A stretch of DNA of 63,867 nucleotides, filler included, from Craspedostauros australis (taxonomy: Eukaryota), in the NCBI GenBank assembly GCA_030167865.1. It is 12 parts of 12 records of this genome, joined end to end, with 100 filler letters (N's around TTAATTAATTAA, not from the genome) between each part and the next. Parts side by side here need not be neighbours in the genome. Positions count along the whole stretch, not along the records: positions 20,265 to 37,666 come from JALAGF010002224.1; 11 more parts are not named here. The stretch is one strand, 5' to 3'. Of this stretch, positions 16,460 through 37,766 are shown piece by piece (positions within the stretch are counted from its first letter, which is position 1; the number at the start of each line of letters is the position of its first letter). The notes beneath the pieces were generated by a model. That model had not been told where the DNA came from and did not search any database. It saw nothing but the letters and a program-made list of their open reading frames with translations. Position numbers and translations under genes: made by a program.

Positions 16460-16559
16460 NNNNNNNNNNNNNNNNNNNNNNNNNNNNNNNNNNNNNNNNN
16501 NNNTTAATTAATTAANNNNNNNNNNNNNNNNNNNNNNNNNNNNNNNNNNNNNNNNNNNN
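16460..16559. other. Artificial contig linker
   Basis: N44-TTAATTAATTAA-N44, which gives stops in all six frames. Confidence 0.97.
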
Positions 16560-22807: not shown

Positions 22808-25090
22808 TTAATACGTCGCCTTGGCTCTCAGAATGACAGCGGCGTTGGTGCGGAAGAAGAGGAACAGCGCGAACATGGACAGCCAGTACCACCATGTGTC
22901 ATCCGGGTCGGTGTTGTTGTTCTCCAACACATCCACACAGAATTCTTCCGCCGCACCAGCCTCGCACGAACCGAATTCGTAGGCGAACATGAGACGGGAG
23001 GCGTAGGTCAGGGAGCACAGGTACTGTGCCCATCGCACGAAGGGTGGAATGAGCTCGATGGCGATGAAGAGTCCGGAGAAGTAGAATTGCGGCACGACGA
23101 TCAGCGTGAACAGGGCCGAGGAATTCTTTGGATCGTCGAACATGGCTCCCAGGTTGATGGCGACGGCGGTCGAGGTCATGGCCAGGGCGTACGAGACGGC
23201 GAAGTATTGTCCGAATCCCATCTGGACGTCCATCATAAAGTAGGTGATGATGCTCTGGATGATCATGGCAGCGAACGTGGTGATCGCTTCGCCCCAGAGA
23301 TGCGAGATGACGTACGGGACGACGGAGTAGTGATCGGTGGAGTATTCGCGCAGGAAGACGGGGCGTTCGAGCGCGAATGTGGCGAGGGCGGTATTGGCTT
23401 GTCCCATCATCGTGGAGATGAGGATGTTGACGAGGCCGCCGAGGATGGAGTTGACGACGGACTGTTGTTCGTTGCGTTAGAATTGCGTTGCGTGTGTGTT
23501 GGTGTGCGTGTGAAGGTGGATGGGAAGTACATGAAGTGTGAGAATATGATTTTTGGTTGTTCATCGTTGGTCGAAGACAGCCAGCATCAAAGGGAAATAC
23601 ATGAATGCACGCATGCTACTTACCGGCGATGTACCACGATCCTTGCCAGCGATGCCCAAAAAGATGACACCGAAGACGAGAGACATGAAGCACGTGATGC
23701 AGACGTTGATGATGAGGGAGGTTGGATTGCGCACCAACGAGATCATCTCTCTGTAGTTGAGCATGTTGAATTCGGTGAGCAGGGAGACGTGCTGACGGTC
23801 CGGCATCACCAATTCCGATTTTGGCTTTTCAATGATGGTCGGCAGCTGCTTGCCGTTGTTGAAGAATCCTGCCACTTCGAGTTCTTCGACTTCATTGAGC
23901 TCCGCGACTTCGATGACGTGATCAGCGGGGTTGGTCTGATTTGGGATTGGGAATCCGCGCGCCGTGAAGTCCATGTCGAGCTCCTTGACCTTGCCCTGGT
24001 ACATGACGCGTCCCTTGTTGAGAAGGAGGAGGTTGTCGAATTTGCAAAAGATGCGGGACGATGGCTGATGGATCGTGAAGAGGACCGTGTTGCCTTGCTT
24101 CGCGACCTGATCCAGCAGCCCCATGACTTGGCTCGCGGCGTGGCTGTCCAGACCCTGTGATTGCAGCGCGTTGATGATTGAGGTCGGCAAGATGGGATGG
24201 AATAGAATTGTTAGATCGCATGTCAATGAGGTGCATCGTGTCCGTCGCAAAATGGAAGGCAAAAACAGAACAATACTGCGCAATCAGTCCATGCAGGATG
24301 GCTCATGGCGATGGCAAGAAGAGCAAGACCGCAAACTCACCGACGTCGGTTCATCGAGAAAAATGATGCTGGGTGACGAGACCAATTCGACTCCAATCGA
24401 CACGCGTCGCTTTTCGCCACCCGAAATTCCCTTCTGGTACTTGCCCCCGATGATGGTGTCGGCGGCGCGTTCCAGTCCCAAATGACCGATGAGCTCATCG
24501 ACCAGCGAGTTGATCTTCTCGTTCGTGGTCGACCGCGGCAACCGCAGCCTCGCGCTGAAGTAGAGCGCCTCGCGCGGCGTCGAACTCTCGTGCAGGGAAT
24601 CGAACTGCGAGACGTACGCGAAGGAGTTGCGGATGGCGACGTTGTTGGGATTGATCTTGACACCGTCCAGGTAGATGTCGTGCTCGATGTTGATCTTGCC
24701 CCTGCTGGAGATGCGCCCGGCCAAGGTGGAGAAGAGGGAGGTCTTGCCGGCTCCGGAGGCGCCCATGATGGCCGTGGTCTGTCCACCCGGCGCGCAGCCC
24801 CAGGCGTTGTTGAGGATGTACTTGTCCACCTGCTTCTTCTTGCCCATGAGCTTCATGGTGACGTTGCGCCAGCTGAGGTCCTGCTGCTTGTCGCATTTGA
24901 ACATGCTGCTTTCCTGCATCATGGCGCTTTTCTCTTTGGTGCTGTCGAACACCAGTTCGGCCTCGTCGCCCAGCTCCAAGTCATTCACGACGTCGGATCC
25001 TGGCTGCTGCTCTTCCGCACCCATTTCGACGCCTTGGACGCTGGTGTCTTGGAGTTCTGTGTCAACTGGTTGTTCTGTGATGAGTGTCAT
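22808..25090 (-). CDS. ABCG (White-type) half transporter, ~644 aa, 3 exons
   Basis: Walker A GASGAGKT, signature ISGGEKRRVSIG, FLDEPTS|GLDS across intron 24340-24155, and TIHQPS. Intron 23623-23462 is followed by an ABC2 membrane domain (ERPVFLRE, FSGLFI..ELIP). Confidence 0.94.
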
Positions 25091-26744
25091 TTTGTCTTTG
25101 GCTTTGTGGTGTGTGTGCGGATTGTCAGGTGTGGGAGCTGGTCAAGTGGTGGGCTCTTGTGTGTCTGTCGTTCTATTCTGTGCTGTTCTGCGAATGTGTG
25201 TGCTTGTAGTGACTTGGTTGGTTGTTGTCTGTGTTGTGGCAGTTGTGATGGTTGTGATGGTTGTTGTCTTCGCTGTGGGAAGTTTTTATGGACACCTCGT
25301 GTCTTTCTCTCTCTCTTTCTCTCTCCATCCACACCACGACCACTGTCGTCTTTCACATCTCTTCCATCCTCCCGTGTCATCTCCTCCCTCCCTTTCTTCT
25401 TCCCATCATCACACACAAGTGTTGTTGGTGCGGTGTCGTCGAAGATCAGCTTCGGTGTTGCTGCGTGGAGCTTCTTGTCGTGGTTGGAGCAACATTGCAT
25501 TGCTCAGCGATGTCACGCACACTTGAGCCATGCTCACTCTTGTGCATGCGTTGTTCGTCAAAGACGGACTGACGTGGGTCATCGAACAGTGCGTTGGACG
25601 TTGATAAATCCATACTTGACATCACTTAACGCCATGCAGACAAGTTGTCACTGTTCTGTGACTCGTGGACTCGCATGATTCCCACATCGTTCTTCTAACA
25701 AACACTCTTGCAAACCGGTGTACCACGTGGTCTTCGTCAACTCTTGTTCAGAATGGTATCTTTGAGGGTACCGGTCATCACATTTGATGGTACTGCGGAA
25801 GTCCTCAATGCGGTTTTTACTTGTTTACTATTACTGAATCGACTGCGATGACCCCAACTCTCGACAAACGTGAATGGTTTGGACCAAACAGCGCCAAAGC
25901 CAACAACAACAACAACGGTGGTGGCTGAAACAAACAACGACAAGAACAACGAGGCAACAGAACAAAGTGAGACACTGCGAGAAGGTAAGGAACAGCGCCA
26001 CCAGCAGCGCCAACAGCAGCAGCCAGCGCCGCAACGGGAAGACCGAGGCAACGCAACGATACCAACATCACCATCTTGTCTGGAAGGTGTGTTGAACGAT
26101 GATGCGTCGCGTGCTTGGGCTTGGCCTTCCTGGGTTGGATGGGGTGACGATGACGACCAGGACTACGACGACGATGATGATGATGACGGGGGCATGGGAG
26201 TGATGATCGTTTGGTGGAGGAGGAGGTGGAGCGTCGTGATGATGTCGATAGGCGGACATTGGAGACCAAGTGGATGTTGTTCATCAACCTGACGGCTTTC
26301 CTGTGTGACGCAGACCAACCGACTACCTAACGTCGACCACGGCACGGCGTCAGCGTTCGTAGACGATGATCGATGTGTGCCAGGAGATGGCGTTTGTTTG
26401 CAGCGAGCACATCACATCAATCCAACAACATCGGAGGACATTTTCTCACACCAACTTGTTGCTCATTTCTGGACTCATGCTCAATCACGTCATGCTGATG
26501 CAACCAACAAACGAACGCTTGGATGGATGGATGTGTGGCTGAATCAATTCATTGATGGACCGTCCCAATCAATACCTTGCGCCACTGGCTGTGCTCGTGC
26601 AATCATGTTGTCCAATCTCGACATGACTTGGTTGGTTGATGGCGCTTCCTGAAACTCTGTCTCAATCCACGATGATGACAACGGCGACAACAACAACAGA
26701 ACACAACGAGTTTTTACACCAACACACAAATATAACTGCACAAA

Positions 26745-27176: not shown

Positions 27177-27724
27177 GCGGCGACTCGAGCAAACAAACTG
27201 AAAACCTAAACAAATCCTATACCCCCACTTTATCAGTCGTTGTTGCACAACCGTGTGCTGTGCAGCAGGAAATATGAACCGCAAGGTTGTACTCTATCCA
27301 TGCCAGGGATGTTGCGGTGCATAGGGTTGCACGACTATTCCACCTGCAGAGCATCAAAGCCAAGGATAGTACAAGAAACTCCAACACAATCCAATTGCCT
27401 GAATCCGAGTCTAATCTTACCTGTAGACATTGATGGACACGATGGAACCAATCAACGATGAGAACCCTTCGGATGCAAAAAACGAAGTGATGCCAAACGG
27501 AACACTCCACATCAGCGTCACACAGCGCATCATCCTCGCGGAAAGACGTCACTCGCGACGTTGCTGCACCGCGCAAGGGCGCAAATCCAAGGAGAGGGGC
27601 TGTATCTTTCCATTCTGCTGCTCAATCGTACTCCCGCAATCCACTGCATCACCCACAAATCAAAGACTTTGGCAATACATCATCTCCAGACGACTCTTCC
27701 TCTGCTCAAGTCCAATCCACGACC

Positions 27725-28732
27725 ATGAAGTACACCATCTCCGCCGCGGCGCTGTCGCTGTTCCTGCTGTCTCTCGCGGATCCAACAACGGCCTTCCTTC
27801 CCATCGGCATGCACTCGTCGACACGATCCAGCACAGCCCAGCATGCCTTCTGGAGGAATTCTGATGACGCAACTCGCAATGACGAGAAACGCAACACGCT
27901 GGCAGCCACGATCGTGATGGCCATCGCACTGACGTGCAGCAGCCCAGCGTGGGCCGTCAGCGGAGGTGGTCTGGATTATGCCAACATCGACATCTCTGGA
28001 CAGGACTTCGGTGACGGGTCCTACAAGGGCAAGGACTTCACCCAGGTCATTGCCAAGAACACCAACTTTGCCAAGTCCAATCTGCAAGGATGCCGATTTT
28101 ACAAGGCCTATTTGGTAGGTTCGGTTGTTCTGTGGCGTATGTGTGTAGCGTGATGTGGTGTGTTGCAGTGCGATGCAGTGCGGCACATGGCGATGCGGGA
28201 TGAGATGGCCTCGTGAGGTCATACTGAGTTCGGTGGGCACCAGAGCATACTGGGTTACGATTTGTTCAAGGACGGGATCTCATCTTCGTTTGCTTCCTTG
28301 CCTCCTTTCTCTCTATCTCCCCTGCTGTTTGCGTTCGCTCCGTGGGGCATGATGTGGATTCATCTCTTCTCTCTAACCCCACAAACTCAATCACAATGCA
28401 ATCAACGCAATGCTCCAACACATACTGCATGCATTTGAACCGCAAACTCACGCTCCCAACAAAAACAGGTCAACACCAACTTCGAGGCCGCCGATCTGCG
28501 CGGTGCCTCCCTCGAGGATACCAGCATGGATGGCGCCAACATGAAGGACGCCATCGCTGTCGGTTCCTATTTTTCCAAATCCATCCTCGATGTTGCCTCC
28601 GTGGAGAATGCCGATTTTACCGATGCTCAATTTCCGCTCAAAACGCAACCGCTTCTGTGTCTACGCAATGATCTCACTGGAACCAATCCTGTCACTGGCG
28701 CTGATACCCGAGAATCGGCGATGTGTCCGTAA
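27725..28732 (+). CDS. Thylakoid-lumen pentapeptide-repeat protein (~217 aa, 2 exons)
   Basis: Signal peptide plus TA-FLP, then a hydrophobic lumen signal ending AWA. A(D/N)Lxx repeats are joined across a GTAGGT...CAG intron at 28115-28468. C-terminus GTNPVTGADTRESAMC. Confidence 0.9.
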
Positions 28733-28968
28733 GCATTGATGGAGAGAGAGAAAAAGATAACGGCAAATCGCAATCGCAATCGTAATTCATTGGACAGCAG
28801 CTACAGCAAATGAATTATCGTCATGCATGGCAATCACATAGTGCCACAAGACAAACAGCTAAACACACAGGCACACATACGCACGCAGACTCATGCACAA
28901 AAAGAGAGAGAAAGAAAGAGAGACAACATATTCTGCAAGAGGACGACACCTACTTTCTCATTGCTTGT

Positions 28969-31900
28969 CTATTCGTTCTGTATGCTCGCTTTGGACTCGT
29001 CGTCCGTTATCCCGAATAACTCGAGACAATGTTGATGATCGGCTGGATGTCCCCAGCCACCATACCCCTTGCGTGCCTTGCGAGTTTTTTTCACCGGTGG
29101 CGTGGAAAGATTGGCATTCGTCGGCACCTCGAAGCTCATCATCAGCTGTTTGCCCTTCACGATGTTGGCTTGTAGGCGTTTCATCATTGCATGCATGTTC
29201 TTCTCGTGCATGCCACCTTCCAATCCAATGTGGATGGCCTGCGGTTTGGACGGCGATACAACGTATTCAGGAAGGATACCCTTGGCCATGAGATGGACCA
29301 TGGACCAGTCCCTGTCGCAAAGTGTCACAGAGTAACGGAGAGCAGGGGATGTACGAATACGAAGGTTTGGTACCATGACGTTTGAAGCGCCCGGTGCCAT
29401 ACAAGACGAAAATGGAAGGAAGACAAGAAAGCAACAGCAGCATCGCTGTGAGTTTGTGTGCTGTGATCGATCCCATGCGTGCACTCTGCCATGCACTCTT
29501 TCACCCAGCCAGCCACCCATTCGTTCATTCATTCATCTATTCATTCATCCGGTCGTTCATGATGCCCATTGATCAAAAAACAGCACCTACCAGTTGTAAT
29601 CATCAAACGTGCAGTACTCTTTGGCACCCGACCGGATCTTGGCATAGATAGCACGATCGATCGCCATCGGCCCAGTCACGAACACCTTGTGAATGAACTT
29701 GTTCACTTCAAATCGTTTGCCCTTCAGCGTCGATTGCATGAAGCCTTCGGTGGGATCCAACGTCACGCCAAAGTACCGTTCGCGGTATCCACCTCGATCG
29801 ATGGCGCGGTAGGCCTCGACAAGGGTGCGATAGATCATCGGCGCGATGACGTAATCCTCCTCCAAAAACAGAAAGGCACGCGCGTTGCCAAGTTTGACGC
29901 TGCCGAAGACCTGATTGAGTAACCACGTGAAATGGTGCTTGCAGCATGTGATCTTGGCCTCGCGTTTGTGAAGGTAGGTGTCGCCAGCGTAGTCGATGTT
30001 CAATTTGGGATCGTCTCCAGGGAAGGTATCGGGATGTTCCAAGCAGGAGAATGGATGAAAGACTTGGATGATATCAAACTCATCTTCTCGCTTCAATTCT
30101 TCGACGAATTCCACAACCTCCGCAACTCTGCCATCGTGCGAAATGATGACGGGGACTCGATCTCGCGGAAAGTCGGACTGGCGCAGAGACGCAATGGCCT
30201 CCTTCAGATAATCCACGCGTTGGTACACCATGTACACGAACGGAAATGTCTCCGTGGCAAAGTTGATGGGATCAGGTCCCGACGATTTCTCGACGGTCTT
30301 CTCCTTCTTGGCTGGCATGTTGACGGGGGTAATCTGTCCCAAGTTGCTCGCATCGATCTTGAGATCCTCAAAGCTTGCTATTCCTCGCAATCCACCGGTA
30401 CTTTTCGGTTGTTGCGTCACCTTGCCAAACATCTCCAACGGATGGTTCAATTCCTTCCACATTCGCTTGGCCAGCGGCGTGATAATGAACTCAGGTGCCT
30501 CGGTATCGTAAGATTTTCCGTCCTCAACTACGACACGCAGACGCGTGCGTGTGGGCACGTTATCCGTCACTCCCTGCGCCAACCCACGCGCATCGTCCTG
30601 CTTCAGGCGACGGTCCAACCAAATGTCGATCGATCCTTCCTGCAACGACGCCGCGCCTTGCGCATGTTCGCTGAGCACCGTCAGGCGCTGATTCGAATCT
30701 TCAATCGAAGCATGCGTTGGCATGGGGAAAACCTGGGACTGGATGGGCATGTCGTCACGGAAATAATGCGTGTCGAAGTTGTATCCATTCAAATCCGTGT
30801 GGAAGACTCCGGCATTGGCTATATCTCCCGAGAAGCGCACAAACCATTCCTCATTGGCCGTCTGCAAGTCGGTCTCGTAGATGAAATCGATGACCGTTGC
30901 AGATTCCCCATTCGGTGGTTTCTTCACGACGACGGTGCGTTTCCAAAACTCCGTCTCAAGCACGTATCCATCCTCCGAGATGGTTGATTCCTGAACATCG
31001 TGATGTTGGAGCTTGCCGGGAAAGAAGAGGTAGGCACCGCCCTTGCTCACCTTCCAGACCATCCATTCCTCGCGGATGGGATGCGTCATGAGACCGTTCT
31101 CATCGAATTGAACCGTGCCTTCGCCGCCGCCAGGCACTTCGCACGGTAACTGCGCCAATTTCGTCTTGCGCGGCGGGACGACAACATCACCGCAGACTTG
31201 ATCGAACTCCACCGGATTGTAGACAAGGATCTTTGCATCCGGAGCGCACAGATTCTGGCTCAACCCGCGCGGCGCATCGGACTGCCAGCACGCCTTGAGG
31301 GTATGCAGATCAAATCCATGCCCGTCCACATCACCCAACAGCTGAGGTGCGATCTTGCTTTGCAACGATCCAATGGCGGCATGGATGCGCTTGGCGTAAT
31401 CGAGGACGACGTGCGTTTTGGCCGTGCCCGTGACGCCATCGTGATGCTGAAAGAGACTGAGCGCACGCCGTTCGTCTTGCAGATCCGTGCGCGAATACCC
31501 GAGCTTGCTGGCCGCGAAGAGAAGGCGTTCCAATTTCCGATCCAACGCCTTGTCAAAGATGCGCGACGTGAAGTAGCCGCTCCAGTAGTCCTGCTCGCGG
31601 TCGGCGTACGTGAAGAAGCTGCCCTTGAGGATGGGTGGTTCGAATTTGCCCATGACGGCCTCGAAGTATTGCGACAACGTGCCAAACTGGATGGACACGT
31701 TGTCGACATTGTCGTTGATGTAATCAAAGATACGCTGATAATTCTCAAACTGATAGTCGGCCTCACGCACGGATTGGTACCGAAAGTCATCGCCGAGCGG
31801 CGCCAGCACGACGTTGGATCGATACAGGTTGGCCTTCTTGCGGTACTGATCCAACAGCAGAAGCGACCGCTCCTCCACGTTGCTGTCATCAATCGGCTTG

Positions 31901-33258
31901 ACGTTCTTCTTCCACGGACACTTGCCGTAATTGGCGAAGCCGCCCTTGTTCTTGCTACCGCCGTTGTGAAATCCTTGCACGCGCGCAAAATCGAATTGGC
32001 AGCACACGCTGGGATCGGGGCCACACGTATGCGGTACGTCGTACGAGAAGAAGGGCATGGTGTGCGTGAAAATATCGTGCTGACCATCGTTGTCCCACGT
32101 CTGGCGCCACATGAATTCGAGCTGCTTGTGCTTGGCCAGTTCCTTCTTGACGGCGTAGTGGACGCGCTGGATGAGCATGCCGTGGAAACCGTACTTTTGG
32201 AGGAGATAGGCCATGGTAGGGGAGTAACCGAAGGGATCGATGGACCAGCCGTATTTCGGCAGATATTCTTTGCCGCCAAAGGCGGACGTGATGAAATCGT
32301 GGCCTTCCTGCAGCTGGATCTCCATGGCGTAAAGCTGCGTATTGGCCTCATCGGGTTGCACCCACCCGCCCGTGACGAACTCGAGCTGTCCATTGGCCAA
32401 CAGTTGCTTCGTGAGCTGCTGCACATCGGCTGACTGCTCCTTCCACCACCATTCGAAGTAACTGATCTCGGCCCAAATGAACTTGCGCCGCGCATCCTTG
32501 GCCAACGACTCCACGACGCTGGATAGGATCGTCTTGGTCTGAGACTGGAAGTACTGATCGAACGTCTTGATCCAACCCGGATCGCAATGCGAATGCGGTA
32601 CGACGAAGATCTGGAGGGGACGCGAGTCGTCGACGGGTTGCACGTCCCATCCTTGCTTCCAGACGCCGCCGTCGGGGTTGTCGAACGGGAGCGTGCGCGC
32701 CATCTGTCGCATGTCGATCATCTCCTTGGCGTTGGGCGTGACTTTGGGTGTGGCGTGGATCGGTGACGTGTGCGTCGTTTGCGCGATCTGTGGCACTTTG
32801 TGCATGTCTCCCTTCTGCATAACTTGCTGGACGTTCGCGATCATATCGTTCGTATCCACATGCTTGCTCTTTGTTGTGCGCATGAGGAAGACGGTGAGGA
32901 CGATCCAAATGCCAATGAGCAAGCAGAGGACGAGCACCATGCAGCATGTCAGCAGGCGACCCGACTTTTTGTTCCTGTCGGACTTCTTGCGCTTCTTTTT
33001 GGATTGTCGTTGCCGTTGTTTGTGGCCGTGCAAGTCTGCGTGCTGTTGGACGCTATTGTTGTTGTTTTTGTTGCTGTGACTGGCGGTGGCTGCATTGTGA
33101 TCCGGCTGCTTCCCACTTCTGCTTTTGGCTTCATTCCTGGAAGAAGGATGTGATACGTTGGAGGTTGGCGGAGTGATGCATGACAGATCGACGCTGTTGC
33201 CGCTGTTCACGCCAACATTCGCGTTGCCGCTGTTCTTCGTTCTCGACCGGATCGGCAT
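28969..33258 (-). CDS. Golgi alpha-mannosidase II (GH38) fused to N-acetylglucosaminyltransferase II (MGAT2/GT16), ~1336 aa, 2 exons
   Basis: Type II TM LLTCCMVLVLCLLIGIWIVLTVFLM. GH38 motifs VVPHSHCDPGW, WSIDPFG, PLGDDF and LFQHHDGVTGT. In the same ORF, MGAT2 motifs IISHD, QVFHPFS...FPGDDP, HKREAK..CKHH and FLEEDY. Intron 29590-29312 restores CTFDDYNWDW, and the last exon has HIG..GGMH and GGWGHPADHQHC. Confidence 0.92.
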
Positions 33259-34007
33259 GGTTGCGGATTGCCAATGAAGAGGGAAGAAGAGGAGGGCGCC
33301 GCGGAAGGAAGGAGAGAAAGCAGGAGTGCTCGTTGATGGATGCTGTCTCCTTCGCCTTGCACTCAAAGATTCAATGGCCTATTCTCCCCATCCAACGTCC
33401 CAACAAGGCAGTTTGCGAGAGAGTATTATACTTCGGAGCTTCACTCTGCCCTCTATCTCTCTGTCTCTCTGCTTGATGCCTGGGTTACGGATGACTCTAT
33501 GTTGAATGTACAATACGAAAGATGTAATAGGCAAGACCAGTGGCAACCAGGTCTCGACACAGAGACGGAGGTGCGGGCTCTCCAAGGAGAGGTGATGGTG
33601 ATGATGATGACTGCGTCTTGAGTGAAGGCTCTGCTCTTGTTTTCTCGCATTGTCGCTGGTTGGTTTTGTGTTGCTGTGAATCGTCACACCATTCATTTCT
33701 CGGTTTTTGGTTATCCACGACTCGGATGCTTCCAGTCTTTTTGCGACATTTTTCTTCCCTCTTGGGGTGGGGACTTGGTTCAATCCGAGCATCCAAGCAC
33801 ATCTCCTCCATCATTCATGTACAATCTGCTGCGAACGTATGACATGGGCTGCACTACATGGTTACATTTCAGCATAAGTTTATCACTATGCTGTGCTGCT
33901 GCTCCACATCTTCACAAAGTGCGGTGTTCCACCCAAGCACGATCTATGCATCGCAACCCAACACGGTCGTACTCGTGGATTTCATGCTATCGTTATTCTT
34001 CTCCAGT

Positions 34008-35126
34008 TCAATCCGGCATGCGGGACATCACATCGCGGATGATGGCGATATCGTAGGGATCTTCGTCATACCGATCGAAACAGCTGCGGCACATGACATA
34101 CCCTCGTCCGCGACAGCTGGAGCACTGCACGCTGCGTCCACCCATGGCGACGTACGTTCCCACGCCGTCGCAGTTGGGACATTCTGCACGTCGTGTGTCA
34201 TTGCACACTTGGCATGGCTCTTCCTTCTTCTTTTCTATGGTTTTCGCACCCAAATAATCCCAAAACCCGCGCGCCAAATTGCCGTTAGCGGGACCGCCCA
34301 GGAAGTAGACGGGGAGGATCCACAGCGGAAAGAACCCCGTCTCGCCTGCATCCGTGTAGTGGTACTGCTGCAGCAGCGTGATCAATGCCACCTCTATCAG
34401 CGGCCCGCCCAGCCCCGTCGCGGCGCTCGTCACGAATCCGCTGCGCGTGTTGTCCAATCGCCAGAATCCCACGGCCGCGATAGCCGACATCACGTTGAGG
34501 ATTGTGGTGCGGTCGTATTCTCCAGAATAGAAGAGGATTCCGCTGAGCCAATATTGGAACGTGAAGATGGCGATGCCGACCATGATCTTGGGTCCGGATG
34601 GATGCAGCGCAGCGTCCGTCTTGTCCTCCAGGATGTGATCCAACACGATGTAGAGCCAACCGATCAGGAAGCCGGCCAGTCCGAACAGTTCGGGGACCCA
34701 CCAGGCCGTGGTCAGCGCCGGAAACTCGGGCGATGTGCTCCACAGCTGGAAGATGATCGGGTTGTCGTATTGCAGCACGTGGAAGGCGCTGTGATAGGCA
34801 TCGAGGAAGGGTCCCAGGATCGCGCCGGACAGCGTCATCAACAATGAGAATTGTGCGGATCGAACGGGACGTTCTGTGATGGCGGCGTGCCATGGCACAT
34901 TGTTGTTGCTGTTGTTGTTGTCATTCGATGATGCCTGCAATGATGTTGATGATCGAGTGGACCACGATGGAATTGCCAATGTTGGTTGTGCGGCTTCTTG
35001 TGATGTTGCGATTCCTCTGTGTGGCCGAATCGGAAAGGATGTCACATCCGAAACAGCGGCAAGGCAGAGCAACGCCAACGGCAGCAGCAAGCACTTCGTA
35101 CCATCACGATAGTTGCGCATCCGCAT
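34008..35126 (-). CDS. Plastid-targeted multi-pass membrane protein (plant INSIG-like family) with a C-terminal DnaJ-type Zn finger, ~372 aa
   Basis: Signal peptide ending VTS-FP. Membrane region GAILGPFLDAYHS, WWVPELFGLAG, GGPLIE and PLWILPVYF. Zn finger CQVC-x7-CPNCDGVG...CSSCRGRGYVMCRSC. Confidence 0.72.
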   Translation of the reverse strand: MRMRNYRDGTKCLLLPLALLCLAAVSDVTSFPIRPHRGIATSQEAAQPTLAIPSWSTRSSTSLQASSNDNNNSNNNVPWHAAITERPVRSAQFSLLMTLSGAILGPFLDAYHSAFHVLQYDNPIIFQLWSTSPEFPALTTAWWVPELFGLAGFLIGWLYIVLDHILEDKTDAALHPSGPKIMVGIAIFTFQYWLSGILFYSGEYDRTTILNVMSAIAAVGFWRLDNTRSGFVTSAATGLGGPLIEVALITLLQQYHYTDAGETGFFPLWILPVYFLGGPANGNLARGFWDYLGAKTIEKKKEEPCQVCNDTRRAECPNCDGVGTYVAMGGRSVQCSSCRGRGYVMCRSCFDRYDEDPYDIAIIRDVMSRMPD

Positions 35127-36512
35127 GATGTCCTTGGTGTACGAGTATGCGTGGGTCTCATTCAATGTCTCTGTTGCTGTTCGCCTTTGGTTTGGATCGC
35201 ATCGGCTTGAGTTGATTTGACTTGGTTGTCTGGTGATGCGACGATGTGTGGTTGGATGGTGTTTGTCGGGTGATGTCGGTGGACATTTCATGTGATGGTT
35301 TTCGATGGCGTCATATCCGAGTCTATGGAAGTAATCTAGATGCTTTCGGCGTCGTACCATCGTGTCTACATCCACAACAACTACGACCTATGTACATCGA
35401 AATCAATTCCGACATCTTGTTACAGCATGTCTGATTCTCCCATACCTCTCCGATCCACCACATCCATCACACCTTCACAGCACATGTGCAATCTTATTCT
35501 ATATTGGATCGTTGCACTTCCGCCACACCGGGGCAGCATGCCATCGGCACGAAACGATGTCCAATTGACCTCTCACGCAGTGCCATCTCGCCTCCAAGAT
35601 TGGAGTTGCTGAGGGTTTGACACGATTGCCACATGCCATGGAATAGCGCCATCAGAGGACCTCTGGCAATCCATTTGGCGAGATGGCAATGGCCGATCTC
35701 CGTTGCGACCGAATGAACAACCGAGTCCAAGTCATTACGAACACTCGTGATTGTGTCCCACTTCGCACCCCAAGTTTCTGGCGGTTTCTCTTCGTCCAAA
35801 CGAGAGGCCTCCCATGTTCGTCGCTAGCAAGATCGTCGATGCCCAGAGTGAACCCTGCGTCGCGACTCCGCCTGAAGTCTTGGCCGCATTACGCACGATC
35901 GACGTCCGAGTATCTTTGGCCACTCGCGGCCTCACTACCTGCTGCTGATTTATTGTCTTGGATCGGGCGTCTGGCTCTTGATTCCGCCAAACAGTCCTCG
36001 TTGGAACATAGAAGAGCAACAAATCCACCACTCAGTGAATCTTGGATGTCAAGACAGAGCAATCCGTTCTGTTTCATTCTCACAAAATCCAATGCGAACG
36101 CAAACACAGATGATGCTAAGGACAAGGTCACGTAAGAGGTCCACGAACAGCACCGCAAAGAAGGCGAGCGTTTCTCATCTGATCGTCTGTGCACACGAAG
36201 CAATCACTATCCTCTCCTCTCCTCTGCTACATACTCCACTCTGCTCTGCTCTACTCTGCTATACTCCAATCTTTCAACTCAACTTGACTTGCTTTAACTC
36301 ACCTCCAGACTCATCTCAACTCACGCCAGCGCACCGCACTCCAGCGTAGTTTCAATCTCTTTGCTTCTCCCTCTCTGCGGTGCTATGCCGCTCCCCAAAG
36401 AAAGTGAGCGATCTCTTCGCCGAGATTGCAAATCTCAGCATGTCTGCTCATAAAATCTCGATCACAATTACAATCATCCACATCATCAATCACAACAGAA
36501 CATCAATCCATC

Positions 36513-37666
36513 ATGACCATCCTTAGCATCAAGAACGAGATCGTCGCATTGGTTGTGGCAAACAGCCTCTTCTTCCATGGCGTCGATGCGTTGCTGGACA
36601 ACGCCGTCGCAACCGGTGACCACAACACCATCATCGACGATGTGCATGCGTCTCGCAAGAAGCTGAGACACGGACTCACCAATGACCATGCGCACGTGCA
36701 TAAGCACGACGGCTCCGATGGGCTGAATCACGCGGAGATGCTCGAAGCATACATGGCACAAGGCACGCAACTTCGCACCCCCGTTCGTCATCAGCAGGCA
36801 TCGTTGTCAGTTGCTGGCGGAAAGCCATCTCAACTGATTGACGTTGGCCGTTTGCAAGGAAATCCGGCATTCGATGCCGACGCCCCCACGTTGGATGCAA
36901 CAGGTAAGCCCATGCCACGCAAGCTCAAAAGCTCCAAGCACTCGGCAACTGTGTCATCCAATGAAGACAACTCGGTCGACACGCCAACGCCGACTTCTTC
37001 CGGAGATCGCGCCTCGACAGGAGCATCGGGAGACAATGGTATCCCAGTGGTCACCGGGCCAACTGGAACGTCCGGAGACGCTCCAGAAACCACGACGTCT
37101 CAAGATTCCTCCGGCGGAGACGCAACCTCGGACTCGGGTGATGGATCGACCTTCTGCTTCACCGGAACGGCTACAGGCGTCACCGCAGCCTGTTCATCGG
37201 CCAATGTCAACTGCTGTGTCACACCAGATGGTGCCTCCCGCGATGCATGCGGCTGGGCCAGCCACCGACATGTGCGAGTCTGTGCCAACTCCTGCAACGG
37301 AGATGGAGCTTGCATGTTGGGAACAGATGCAACCACCAACATCGGTTTTGGATTCGTTTCCTGCAACGGTGAGGACGCATGCGCCAGCTCCGTCGGATAC
37401 GTCGAGAACAATTCCTGCAACGGCGAGAGAGCTTGTGATAGAAACATTGGACACATCGCCAAGGGCTCCTGCATTGGCGAAGACGCTTGTGCGAGCAACA
37501 AAGGCGACATCCATACCAGATCCTGCATTGGGATCAGCGCTTGTGTCTACAACTACGAGAGTGTTGGGACAGGATCTTGCCTTGGCGAGAGAGCCTGCAC
37601 CTTCAGCTATCGCGCAGTTGGTGACAACTCCTGTGTGGGACCATCTGCGTGCGAAGAGAGCTTGGG
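36513..37666 (+). CDS. Secreted protein with an S/T/G/D-rich linker and tandem SCxGxxAC repeats (3' truncated)
   Basis: Signal peptide ending GVDA, then RKL-KSSK. Seven SCxGxxAC units, mostly with an 18-aa period, run into the contig end. Confidence 0.8.
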
Positions 37667-37766
37667 NNNNNNNNNNNNNNNNNNNNNNNNNNNNNNNNNN
37701 NNNNNNNNNNTTAATTAATTAANNNNNNNNNNNNNNNNNNNNNNNNNNNNNNNNNNNNNNNNNNNN
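37667..37766. other. Artificial contig linker
   Basis: N44-TTAATTAATTAA-N44. Confidence 0.97.

Follow-up and report, generated by a model that had tools for sequence, protein, structure and literature searches.

One diatom gene joins Golgi alpha-mannosidase II and N-acetylglucosaminyltransferase II modules, probably as a bifunctional enzyme of N-glycan processing

We describe a gene of the diatom Craspedostauros australis that joins Golgi alpha-mannosidase II (Man II, family GH38) and beta1,2-N-acetylglucosaminyltransferase II (GnT II, family GT16, also MGAT2) modules in a single membrane protein. In animals and land plants, separate genes encode Man II and GnT II, and their products must meet in the medial Golgi. 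The gene lies at 28969..33258 on the minus strand of the window, by which we mean the whole analysed stretch of 63,867 nucleotides (12 parts of the genome assembly GCA_030167865.1, joined end to end with 100 filler letters between each part and the next), within the part that comes from JALAGF010002224.1. We consider it likely that the product is a bifunctional, membrane-anchored Man II-GnT II that performs the two steps following GnT I, with the fusion securing co-location and equal dosage of both activities.

The gene occupies a stop-to-stop frame of 1263 codons (29587-33378, minus strand) with its first ATG at 33258. Its coding parts and the modules of the predicted product of 1336 amino acids (aa) are arranged as follows.

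29591..33258, minus strand: coding part of exon 1, residues 1-1222 plus two bases of W1223 (open frame, translation and spliced-length check)
29312..29590, minus strand: intron of 279 nt, GT..AG, phase 2 (sequence and a spliced contig of the public run X1)
28969..29311, minus strand: coding part of exon 2, with the third base of W1223, residues 1224-1336 and the stop at 28971-28969 (Pfam MGAT2 256-349; aligns with human MGAT2 chain residues 319-413)
32956..33258, minus strand: cytosolic tail, residues 1-101, of low complexity and Lys/Arg-rich at its end (sequence scan)
32881..32955, minus strand: single transmembrane signal-anchor, residues ~102-126, type II by its positive-inside flank (Kyte-Doolittle scan)
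30424..32613, minus strand: GH38 Golgi alpha-mannosidase II module, residues 216-945 (Pfam, phmmer against the PDB, conservation)
30253..30423, minus strand: linker, residues ~946-1002, hydrophilic and unconserved (matches neither profile)
29591..30252, minus strand: exon 1 part of the GT16/MGAT2 module, residues 1003-1223 (Pfam MGAT2, alignment to human MGAT2 5vcm)
28972..29310, minus strand: exon 2 part of the GT16/MGAT2 module (Pfam, alignment to 5vcm chain residues 319 and 346)

The frame of exon 1 closes just past ...DDYNW, where the DNA reads GTAGGT, and an AG at 29313-29312 precedes the point at which the frame resumes with DWSMVH.... With 33258-29591 spliced to 29311-28969, the coding sequence measures 4011 nt and encodes 1336 aa. 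The original prediction had proposed this phase-2 intron (29590-29312) as restoring DDYNWDW and yielding a product of that length, and both the spliced length and a contig of run X1 bear it out: the contig (1064 letters, 0 differences) maps to 28963-29310 and 29590-30305 and omits the 279 predicted intron bases, and its gap has CT..AC ends on the plus strand, matching the predicted intron. X1 was the sole run found with contigs at this gene, and its status as RNA is a guess only. Its contigs here are the spliced one at 28963-30305, which spans the GT16 module through to the stop and includes some of the linker, and another at 30469-30628; no X1 contig covers 30306-30468 or the region upstream of 30628, a blank that weighs neither way on a single transcript or on expression of the GH38 part. 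The spliced contig begins upstream of position ~30250 and reaches the stop, and the transcript ending or splicing before that position, which had been named as an outcome that would speak against the fusion, was not seen.

Pfam profiles assign both halves of the protein. In exon 1, Glyco_hydro_38N (PF01074) covers residues 216-551 (E 3.3e-77, 260 bits against a cut-off of 25), Alpha-mann_mid (PF09261) residues 558-634 (E 1.5e-16, 60.7 bits, cut-off 31.1) and Glyco_hydro_38C (PF07748) residues 778-891 (E 7.5e-13, 49.6 bits, cut-off 25), the last of these matching positions 98-206 of its profile only. MGAT2 (PF05060) follows at residues 1003-1222 (E 2.2e-29, 103.1 bits, cut-off 27, profile 25-254 of 349), and exon 2 alone matches the same profile at positions 256-349 (E 2.3e-6, 27.4 bits, cut-off 27). 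Since the two exons abut in the MGAT2 profile, this result provides independent support for the splice. The N-terminal residues ~102-126 form the only hydrophobic segment above 1.6 (peak 3.07 on the Kyte-Doolittle scale, a heuristic and not a dedicated predictor), and a single anchor placed after a Lys/Arg-rich stretch indicates a type II membrane topology. Thus one frame runs, as had been proposed, from a type II transmembrane segment through GH38 into an MGAT2-type domain; the expected linker of ~55 aa at ~30420-30250 corresponds to residues ~946-1002 (~57 aa), which match no profile, and the significant MGAT2 match of the C-terminal part answers the Pfam check that had been suggested. Moreover, every motif listed in the prediction is present, namely HSHCD (starting at residue 222), IDPFG (340), GDDF (489), QHHD (604), SHD (1040), FPGDDP (1079), FLEED (1131), DDYNWDW (1219, across the splice) and GGWG (1307) with the following DH..C.

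The same architecture recurs in other diatoms. A search with the MGAT2 part of the window, restricted to proteins of 672-2139 aa, returned 63 matches among 1096 candidates, and every one of the 63 combines PF05060 with GH38 Pfam domains. Their named sources are pennate diatoms without exception (Nitzschia inconspicua, Nitzschia sp. Nitz4, Bacillariaceae sp., Cylindrotheca fusiformis, Mayamaea pseudoterrestris and Seminavis robusta), and the highest identity of any of them to the window is 60%. Library-wide, 277 proteins reached E<=0.001 in HMMER and 46 reached E<=1e-30; proteins of canonical MGAT2 size appeared from about 1e-16 downwards. Among 250 listed proteins that match the GT16 part of the window, 92 also match its GH38 part. 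Judging from these proteins, the fusion is common and widespread in pennate diatoms. The 90% cluster of a 1266-aa fused protein includes two records from Fragilaria crotonensis of 140 and 534 aa (KAI2496116.1 / KAI2496118.1); hence, the fusion probably extends to araphid pennates, and public annotations seem to split the fused gene, as in this species. Fistulifera solaris has a 309-aa MGAT2-only record (P0079) that begins inside the domain. An artefact, in which two neighbouring genes were joined by chance read-through or mis-assembly, is contradicted by the uninterrupted frame of 1263 codons, by the recurrence of the architecture in 63/63 long relatives, which stem from independent assemblies and from several named species, and by the 92 MGAT2-bearing proteins that also match the GH38 part. 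Nothing speaks in its favour, the one weak point being that no X1 contig joins both modules, and we regard it as effectively refuted already.

The GH38 module is most similar to Drosophila Golgi mannosidase II (dGMII; E ~1e-168 by phmmer against the PDB), followed at a great distance by the jack-bean enzyme (3.9e-66), lysosomal mannosidase (6.9e-39) and others (>1e-6). Because dGMII is by far the best match, the module is of the Golgi Man II rather than the lysosomal or another type. In the alignment, H224/D226 correspond to H90/D92 of dGMII, D341 to D204, D490-D491 to D340-D341, and H606-D607 to H471-D472, so that the Zn ligands H224, D226, D341 and H606 are all present. D341 of dGMII is the acid/base residue. 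The two residues central to catalysis would be encoded at the following positions.

32236-32238, minus strand: nucleophile D341, aligned to dGMII D204
31786-31788, minus strand: acid/base D491, aligned to dGMII D341

A supplement legend of a 2025 review ('An overview of protein N-glycosylation diversity in microalgae', Front Plant Sci 2025;16:1669918, PMC12507850) names H90, D92, D204, H471 and D472 of dGMII as catalytic or Zn residues. As to layout, the GT16 module joins the GH38 module roughly where the last beta-domain of the fly enzyme would sit.

The C-terminal part matches human MGAT2 (5vcm) with E 1e-14 to 3e-16 in a sequence search of the PDB. With human MGAT2 numbered as the 5vcm chain plus 28, E1133-E1134-D1135 align with E259-E260-D261, D1219-W1225 (DDYNWDW) with D342-W348, D1224 with D347, and H1250 with H374. 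The putative functional residues are encoded as follows.

29854-29862, minus strand: EED motif E1133-E1134-D1135, aligned to human E259-E260-D261
29308-29310, minus strand: D1224, aligned with the catalytic base D347 (5vcm chain residue 319)
29230-29232, minus strand: H1250, aligned with the Mn ligand H374 (5vcm chain residue 346)

Human D347 is described as the catalytic base (PMC7014118), while E259-E-D261, H374 and DDYN/W346 of GnT II are given, with the Mn ligands, in the supplement legend of PMC12507850. The fold was assessed on P0066, a 362-aa diatom-type MGAT2 homologue that is 59% identical over 217 aa to the exon 1 MGAT2 part of the window. Its AlphaFold model, built with a 30-row alignment, reached a predicted local distance difference test (pLDDT) value of 84.5 and a predicted template modelling score (pTM) of 0.85, and human MGAT2 chains take the first six places among its PDB matches (E 4.2e-22 to 3.2e-21, template modelling scores 0.62-0.73), with GnT I (5.8e-11) and POMGNT1 next. 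The diatom-type MGAT2 domain is therefore modelled with a GT-A fold closest to that of the solved GnT II.

Conservation was analysed in 28 full-length fused proteins, including that of the window, at 18 catalytic or motif sites. Seventeen of these sites are invariant in 28/28 proteins, and at the remaining one, D1220, 21 proteins have D and 7 have E. The segment equivalent to the linker varies from 33 to 163 aa among the 28 proteins and is unalignable. The invariance of the sites, taken with the variability of the linker, suggests that both active sites are under selection and that the tether is merely a tether.

We thus propose a single-pass type II Golgi protein whose lumenal portion would consist of a GH38 class II Man II, a flexible unconserved tether and a GT16 GnT II. 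GnT I would first produce GlcNAcMan5GlcNAc2. The GH38 module, with its Zn site H224/D226/D341/H606, nucleophile D341 and acid/base D491, would then, depending on that GnT I step, take the two mannoses (alpha1,3- and alpha1,6-linked) off the alpha1,6 arm, and the tethered GT16 module, binding Mn2+ via D1135 of the EED motif and H1250 and using D1224 as the base, would add GlcNAc from UDP-GlcNAc in beta1,2 linkage to the freed alpha1,6-mannose of GlcNAcMan3GlcNAc2, yielding GlcNAc2Man3GlcNAc2. The fusion would set a 1:1 ratio of the two enzymes in the same cisterna, and direct hand-over of the glycan between the modules is possible. Both activities, their substrates, the Golgi location and any channelling are what we infer from sequence.

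Several points weigh against a bifunctional Man II-GnT II. The C-terminal half of the GH38 module (approx. 30424-31350, residues ~635-945) is ~235 aa shorter than that of dGMII, with 166 versus 286 residues between the aligned blocks and ~29 versus 144 beyond them. The 5' end assigned to the gene is provisional: translation from the first ATG gives 1336 aa, compared with 1453 and 1498 aa in the Phaeodactylum tricornutum models. With canonical MGAT2 the GT16 module shares no more than ~25-30% identity, its clade stands on a long branch (1.3 changes per column), and 16 residues are absent within the equivalent of human 181-224, a loop-helix-loop segment which sets GnT II apart from GnT I (PMC7014118); the segment itself is present in a shorter form. 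The fold was modelled on the homologue P0066 and not on the window's own spliced protein. According to the 2025 review, biochemical data on the fused enzyme are still missing (PMC12507850). The reported N-glycans of P. tricornutum are oligomannosides with a little fucosylated paucimannose and include no GlcNAc-terminated biantennary glycan (PMC9300197), an absence that the review attributes, as a postulate, to later trimming by hexosaminidase (PMC12507850).

The glycan profile, the shortened loop-helix-loop segment and the long, fully supported branch that parts the diatom-type clade from canonical MGAT2 would also fit a real fusion whose GT16-like module does not carry out the canonical GnT II step, but uses another acceptor or donor, or has a glycan-binding or retention role for the mannosidase. 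Likewise, close relatives of the module occur in other architectures (MGAT2+GT61+GT7) and as several unfused paralogues on one contig. We nevertheless regard such a non-canonical role as unlikely. The EED motif, the catalytic base, the Mn-binding His and the acceptor-binding motif DDYNWDW are invariant or nearly so in 28/28 fused proteins, which argues against a dead GT16 domain; the best structure and sequence matches are to MGAT2, well above GnT I and POMGNT1; and the canonical step is the simplest explanation for a fusion to the very enzyme that makes the substrate of GnT II.

The tether bears on another alternative, in which the linker of one chain is cleaved, or an additional internal transcript is made, so that two separate enzymes exist in the cell. 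Tethers that are as long (33-163 aa in the homologues), hydrophilic and unconserved as this one are often accessible to proteases, and the unfused type II relatives in Attheya and Epithemia show that a GT16 module can work with an anchor of its own. A GT16 module released from the window protein would, however, be anchorless, given that residues 102-126 are the sole hydrophobic segment; no in-frame hydrophobic start was found near the linker, the fused frame is retained in 63/63 long relatives, and the published reading cites RNA-seq for one transcript (PMC12507850). Hence, we consider separate products improbable and retain the single bifunctional chain as the preferred reading.

The position of the intron allows a further speculation. 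The first complete codon of exon 2 encodes D1224; if the intron is retained, the frame stops one codon past W1223. Because an unspliced message would yield a full mannosidase II with a GT16 module devoid of D1224 and H1250, splicing could conceivably decide whether the enzyme is Man II alone or Man II plus GnT II and so set the extent of N-glycan processing, an idea to which we give very little weight. Many homologues are called as an uninterrupted frame through the intron point and thus appear intronless there, so that any splice switch would be lineage-specific.

Upstream of the gene and in frame with it lies an open reading frame (ORF) of 143 codons (33379-33810, minus strand), parted from it by a single TAG (33379-33381). 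This ORF holds six consecutive His and two in-frame Met and lacks a Pfam match; it could form part of an extended 5' exon structure like that of the published models of 1453 and 1498 aa, or be plain 5' untranslated region. A scan for GT..AG introns able to remove the TAG gave 21 in-frame candidates of 54-219 nt, none of them outstanding.

The diatom-type MGAT2 domain also occurs outside the fusion. Some close relatives, 39-50% identical to the window domain, begin with Met, carry a hydrophobic segment at the N-terminus and have no similarity to GH38. They include a 529-aa protein of Attheya septentrionalis (P0115, an MMETSP transcript) and a 568-aa protein of Epithemia clementina (P0107, KAL7566138.1, on an 889-kb contig), the latter accompanied by a second copy of 365 aa, as well as a partial sequence from Corethron pennatum. 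Three unfused MGAT2-only genes (P0248, P0110 and P0111, of 521, 484 and 543 aa) lie on one contig of 1,357,660 bases and cluster with the Epithemia clementina proteins, which suggests that unfused diatom-type GnT II paralogues expanded locally here. Most of the other short MGAT2-only matches were rejected as proof of unfused genes: 13 out of 18 lie on contigs under 3 kb, one seemingly standalone match of 427 aa shares a 90% cluster with a 1365-aa fused protein, and most of them are probably fragments.

A quick tree of 61 rows, in which fused and unfused proteins were intermingled (9 changes), contained many ambiguous fragment rows and was superseded by a careful tree of 45 rows, comprising 28 fused proteins, 7 confident unfused ones and an outgroup of 10 canonical MGAT2. 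Sixteen rows of the earlier set were left out of it: ten ambiguous MGAT2-only rows, P0233 (identical to P0115), P0108, P0077, P0090, and the two long-branch outgroup rows P0133 and P0163. In the 45-row tree, the diatom-type domains form one clade (support 100/100), within which an MGAT2+GT61 protein and Attheya diverge first, and all 28 fused rows fall in one group (83/94) together with the Epithemia-type and the P0096/P0088 unfused rows. The fused label needs a minimum of 3 changes, of which strongly supported branches force only 1. With its root resting on a long branch, the tree gives moderate support to a single origin of the fusion, close to where the pennates begin and later than the divergence of a centric lineage resembling Attheya; separation or duplication would have followed in a few lineages.

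Two diatom-type MGAT2 relatives, P0237 (1105 aa, cut by the contig end) and P0121 (905 aa), are fused to other glycosyltransferase domains. MGAT2 (E 9e-30), GT61 (5e-9) and GT7 N/C domains of galactosyltransferase type (5e-12, 4e-7) occur in one chain that is basal in the diatom-type clade, and such a chain would be another multi-step glycan-enzyme fusion in a eukaryote.

Pfam searches of the ORFs adjacent to the fusion gene revealed no N-glycan gene cluster, its neighbours being a pentapeptide-repeat gene and a weak INSIG-like ORF. The former (27491-28732, plus strand) converges on the 3' end of the fusion gene and comprises two ORFs that are probably exons, one at 27491-28153 with a weak match (E 1e-3) and one at 28439-28732 (E 9e-9); an X1 contig of higher depth covers 28700-28894. 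The upstream neighbour (34008-35387, minus strand, 459 aa) matches INSIG with E 1e-5 and 25.7 bits, below the cut-off of 28. Farther away, an ORF at 24284-25141 (minus strand) encodes a piece of an ABC-transporter ATPase (E 1.4e-23) and another at 36408-37718 (plus strand) matches DUF7640 (E 2.9e-16). The window contains 37 runs of N, 1017 N in total, none of them within the fusion gene. Most are paired blocks of 44 bases placed 12 bases apart at a dozen places (e.g., 16460-16503 / 16516-16559 and 37667-37710 / 37723-37766), which look like masked stretches of a repeated element.

Whether such a fusion had already been reported was left open by the original prediction; it has. For P. tricornutum, the 2025 review describes Phatr3_52248 as a Man II/GnT II with both functions; this type II protein has 1453 aa, RNA-seq suggests that it comes from a single transcript (the review cites Ovide et al. 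2018), and homologues are predicted in five other diatoms (PMC12507850). In a 2021 study, gene 52248 was listed as a Man II of 1498 aa with GH38 Pfams only, bearing out the original prediction's remark that the GnT II part is easily missed, and no Man II was found in Thalassiosira oceanica (PMC7864949). The searched passages of PMC9300197, PMC7773692 and PMC9826595 do not mention the fusion, and neither a report of it before 2025 nor an enzyme assay was found in the parts of the literature searched. A Man II-GnT II fusion is thus known in kind already, and this locus serves as confirmation. Our analysis adds that Attheya and Epithemia possess relatives that are not fused, that the tree can be reconciled with a single origin close to the pennate base, that both active sites are strictly conserved in 28 fused proteins and that an intron lies next to the catalytic base. 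These additions give footholds for the biochemistry that is still missing. The fusion, natural and covalent, is a ready test of whether tethering consecutive glycan-processing enzymes improves flux, and it locates the GnT II omitted from earlier diatom pathway tables; both matter for the glyco-engineering of Phaeodactylum-type hosts for biopharmaceuticals.

The catalytic N-terminal half of the window protein aligns nearly gap-free with that of dGMII (PDB 1hty, 1qwn, 6rpc and others; query 3-454 on chain 33-487), the two being type II, Golgi-type proteins with identical Zn ligands, nucleophile and acid/base, whereas the C-terminal beta-domains are shorter in the window protein and a GT16 module stands where the fly enzyme ends. 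With human MGAT2/GnT II (PDB 5vcm, 5vcr and 5vcs) it shares a profile covered from 25 to 349 over two exons, the EED motif, the equivalents of the base D347 and of H374, DDYNWDW and GGWG..DH..C; unlike the human enzyme, its GT16 module lacks its own anchor and stem, being attached to a mannosidase, and shows ~25-30% identity with 16 residues fewer in the loop-helix-loop segment. Attheya septentrionalis P0115 and Epithemia clementina P0107 belong to the same diatom-type GT16 clade, are 39-45% identical to the window domain and match the full-length Pfam MGAT2 profile, but possess their own N-terminal hydrophobic anchor and a stem of ~100-150 aa and lack a GH38 part. The closest counterpart is Phatr3_52248 (PMC12507850): the published protein has 1453 aa, or 1498 aa according to PMC7864949, whereas the window gene read from its first ATG gives 1336 aa; the two agree in type II anchor, N-terminal GH38 and C-terminal GnT II modules, catalytic residues and proposed pathway. 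The homologues detected here include Nitzschia inconspicua, Seminavis robusta and Mayamaea pseudoterrestris.

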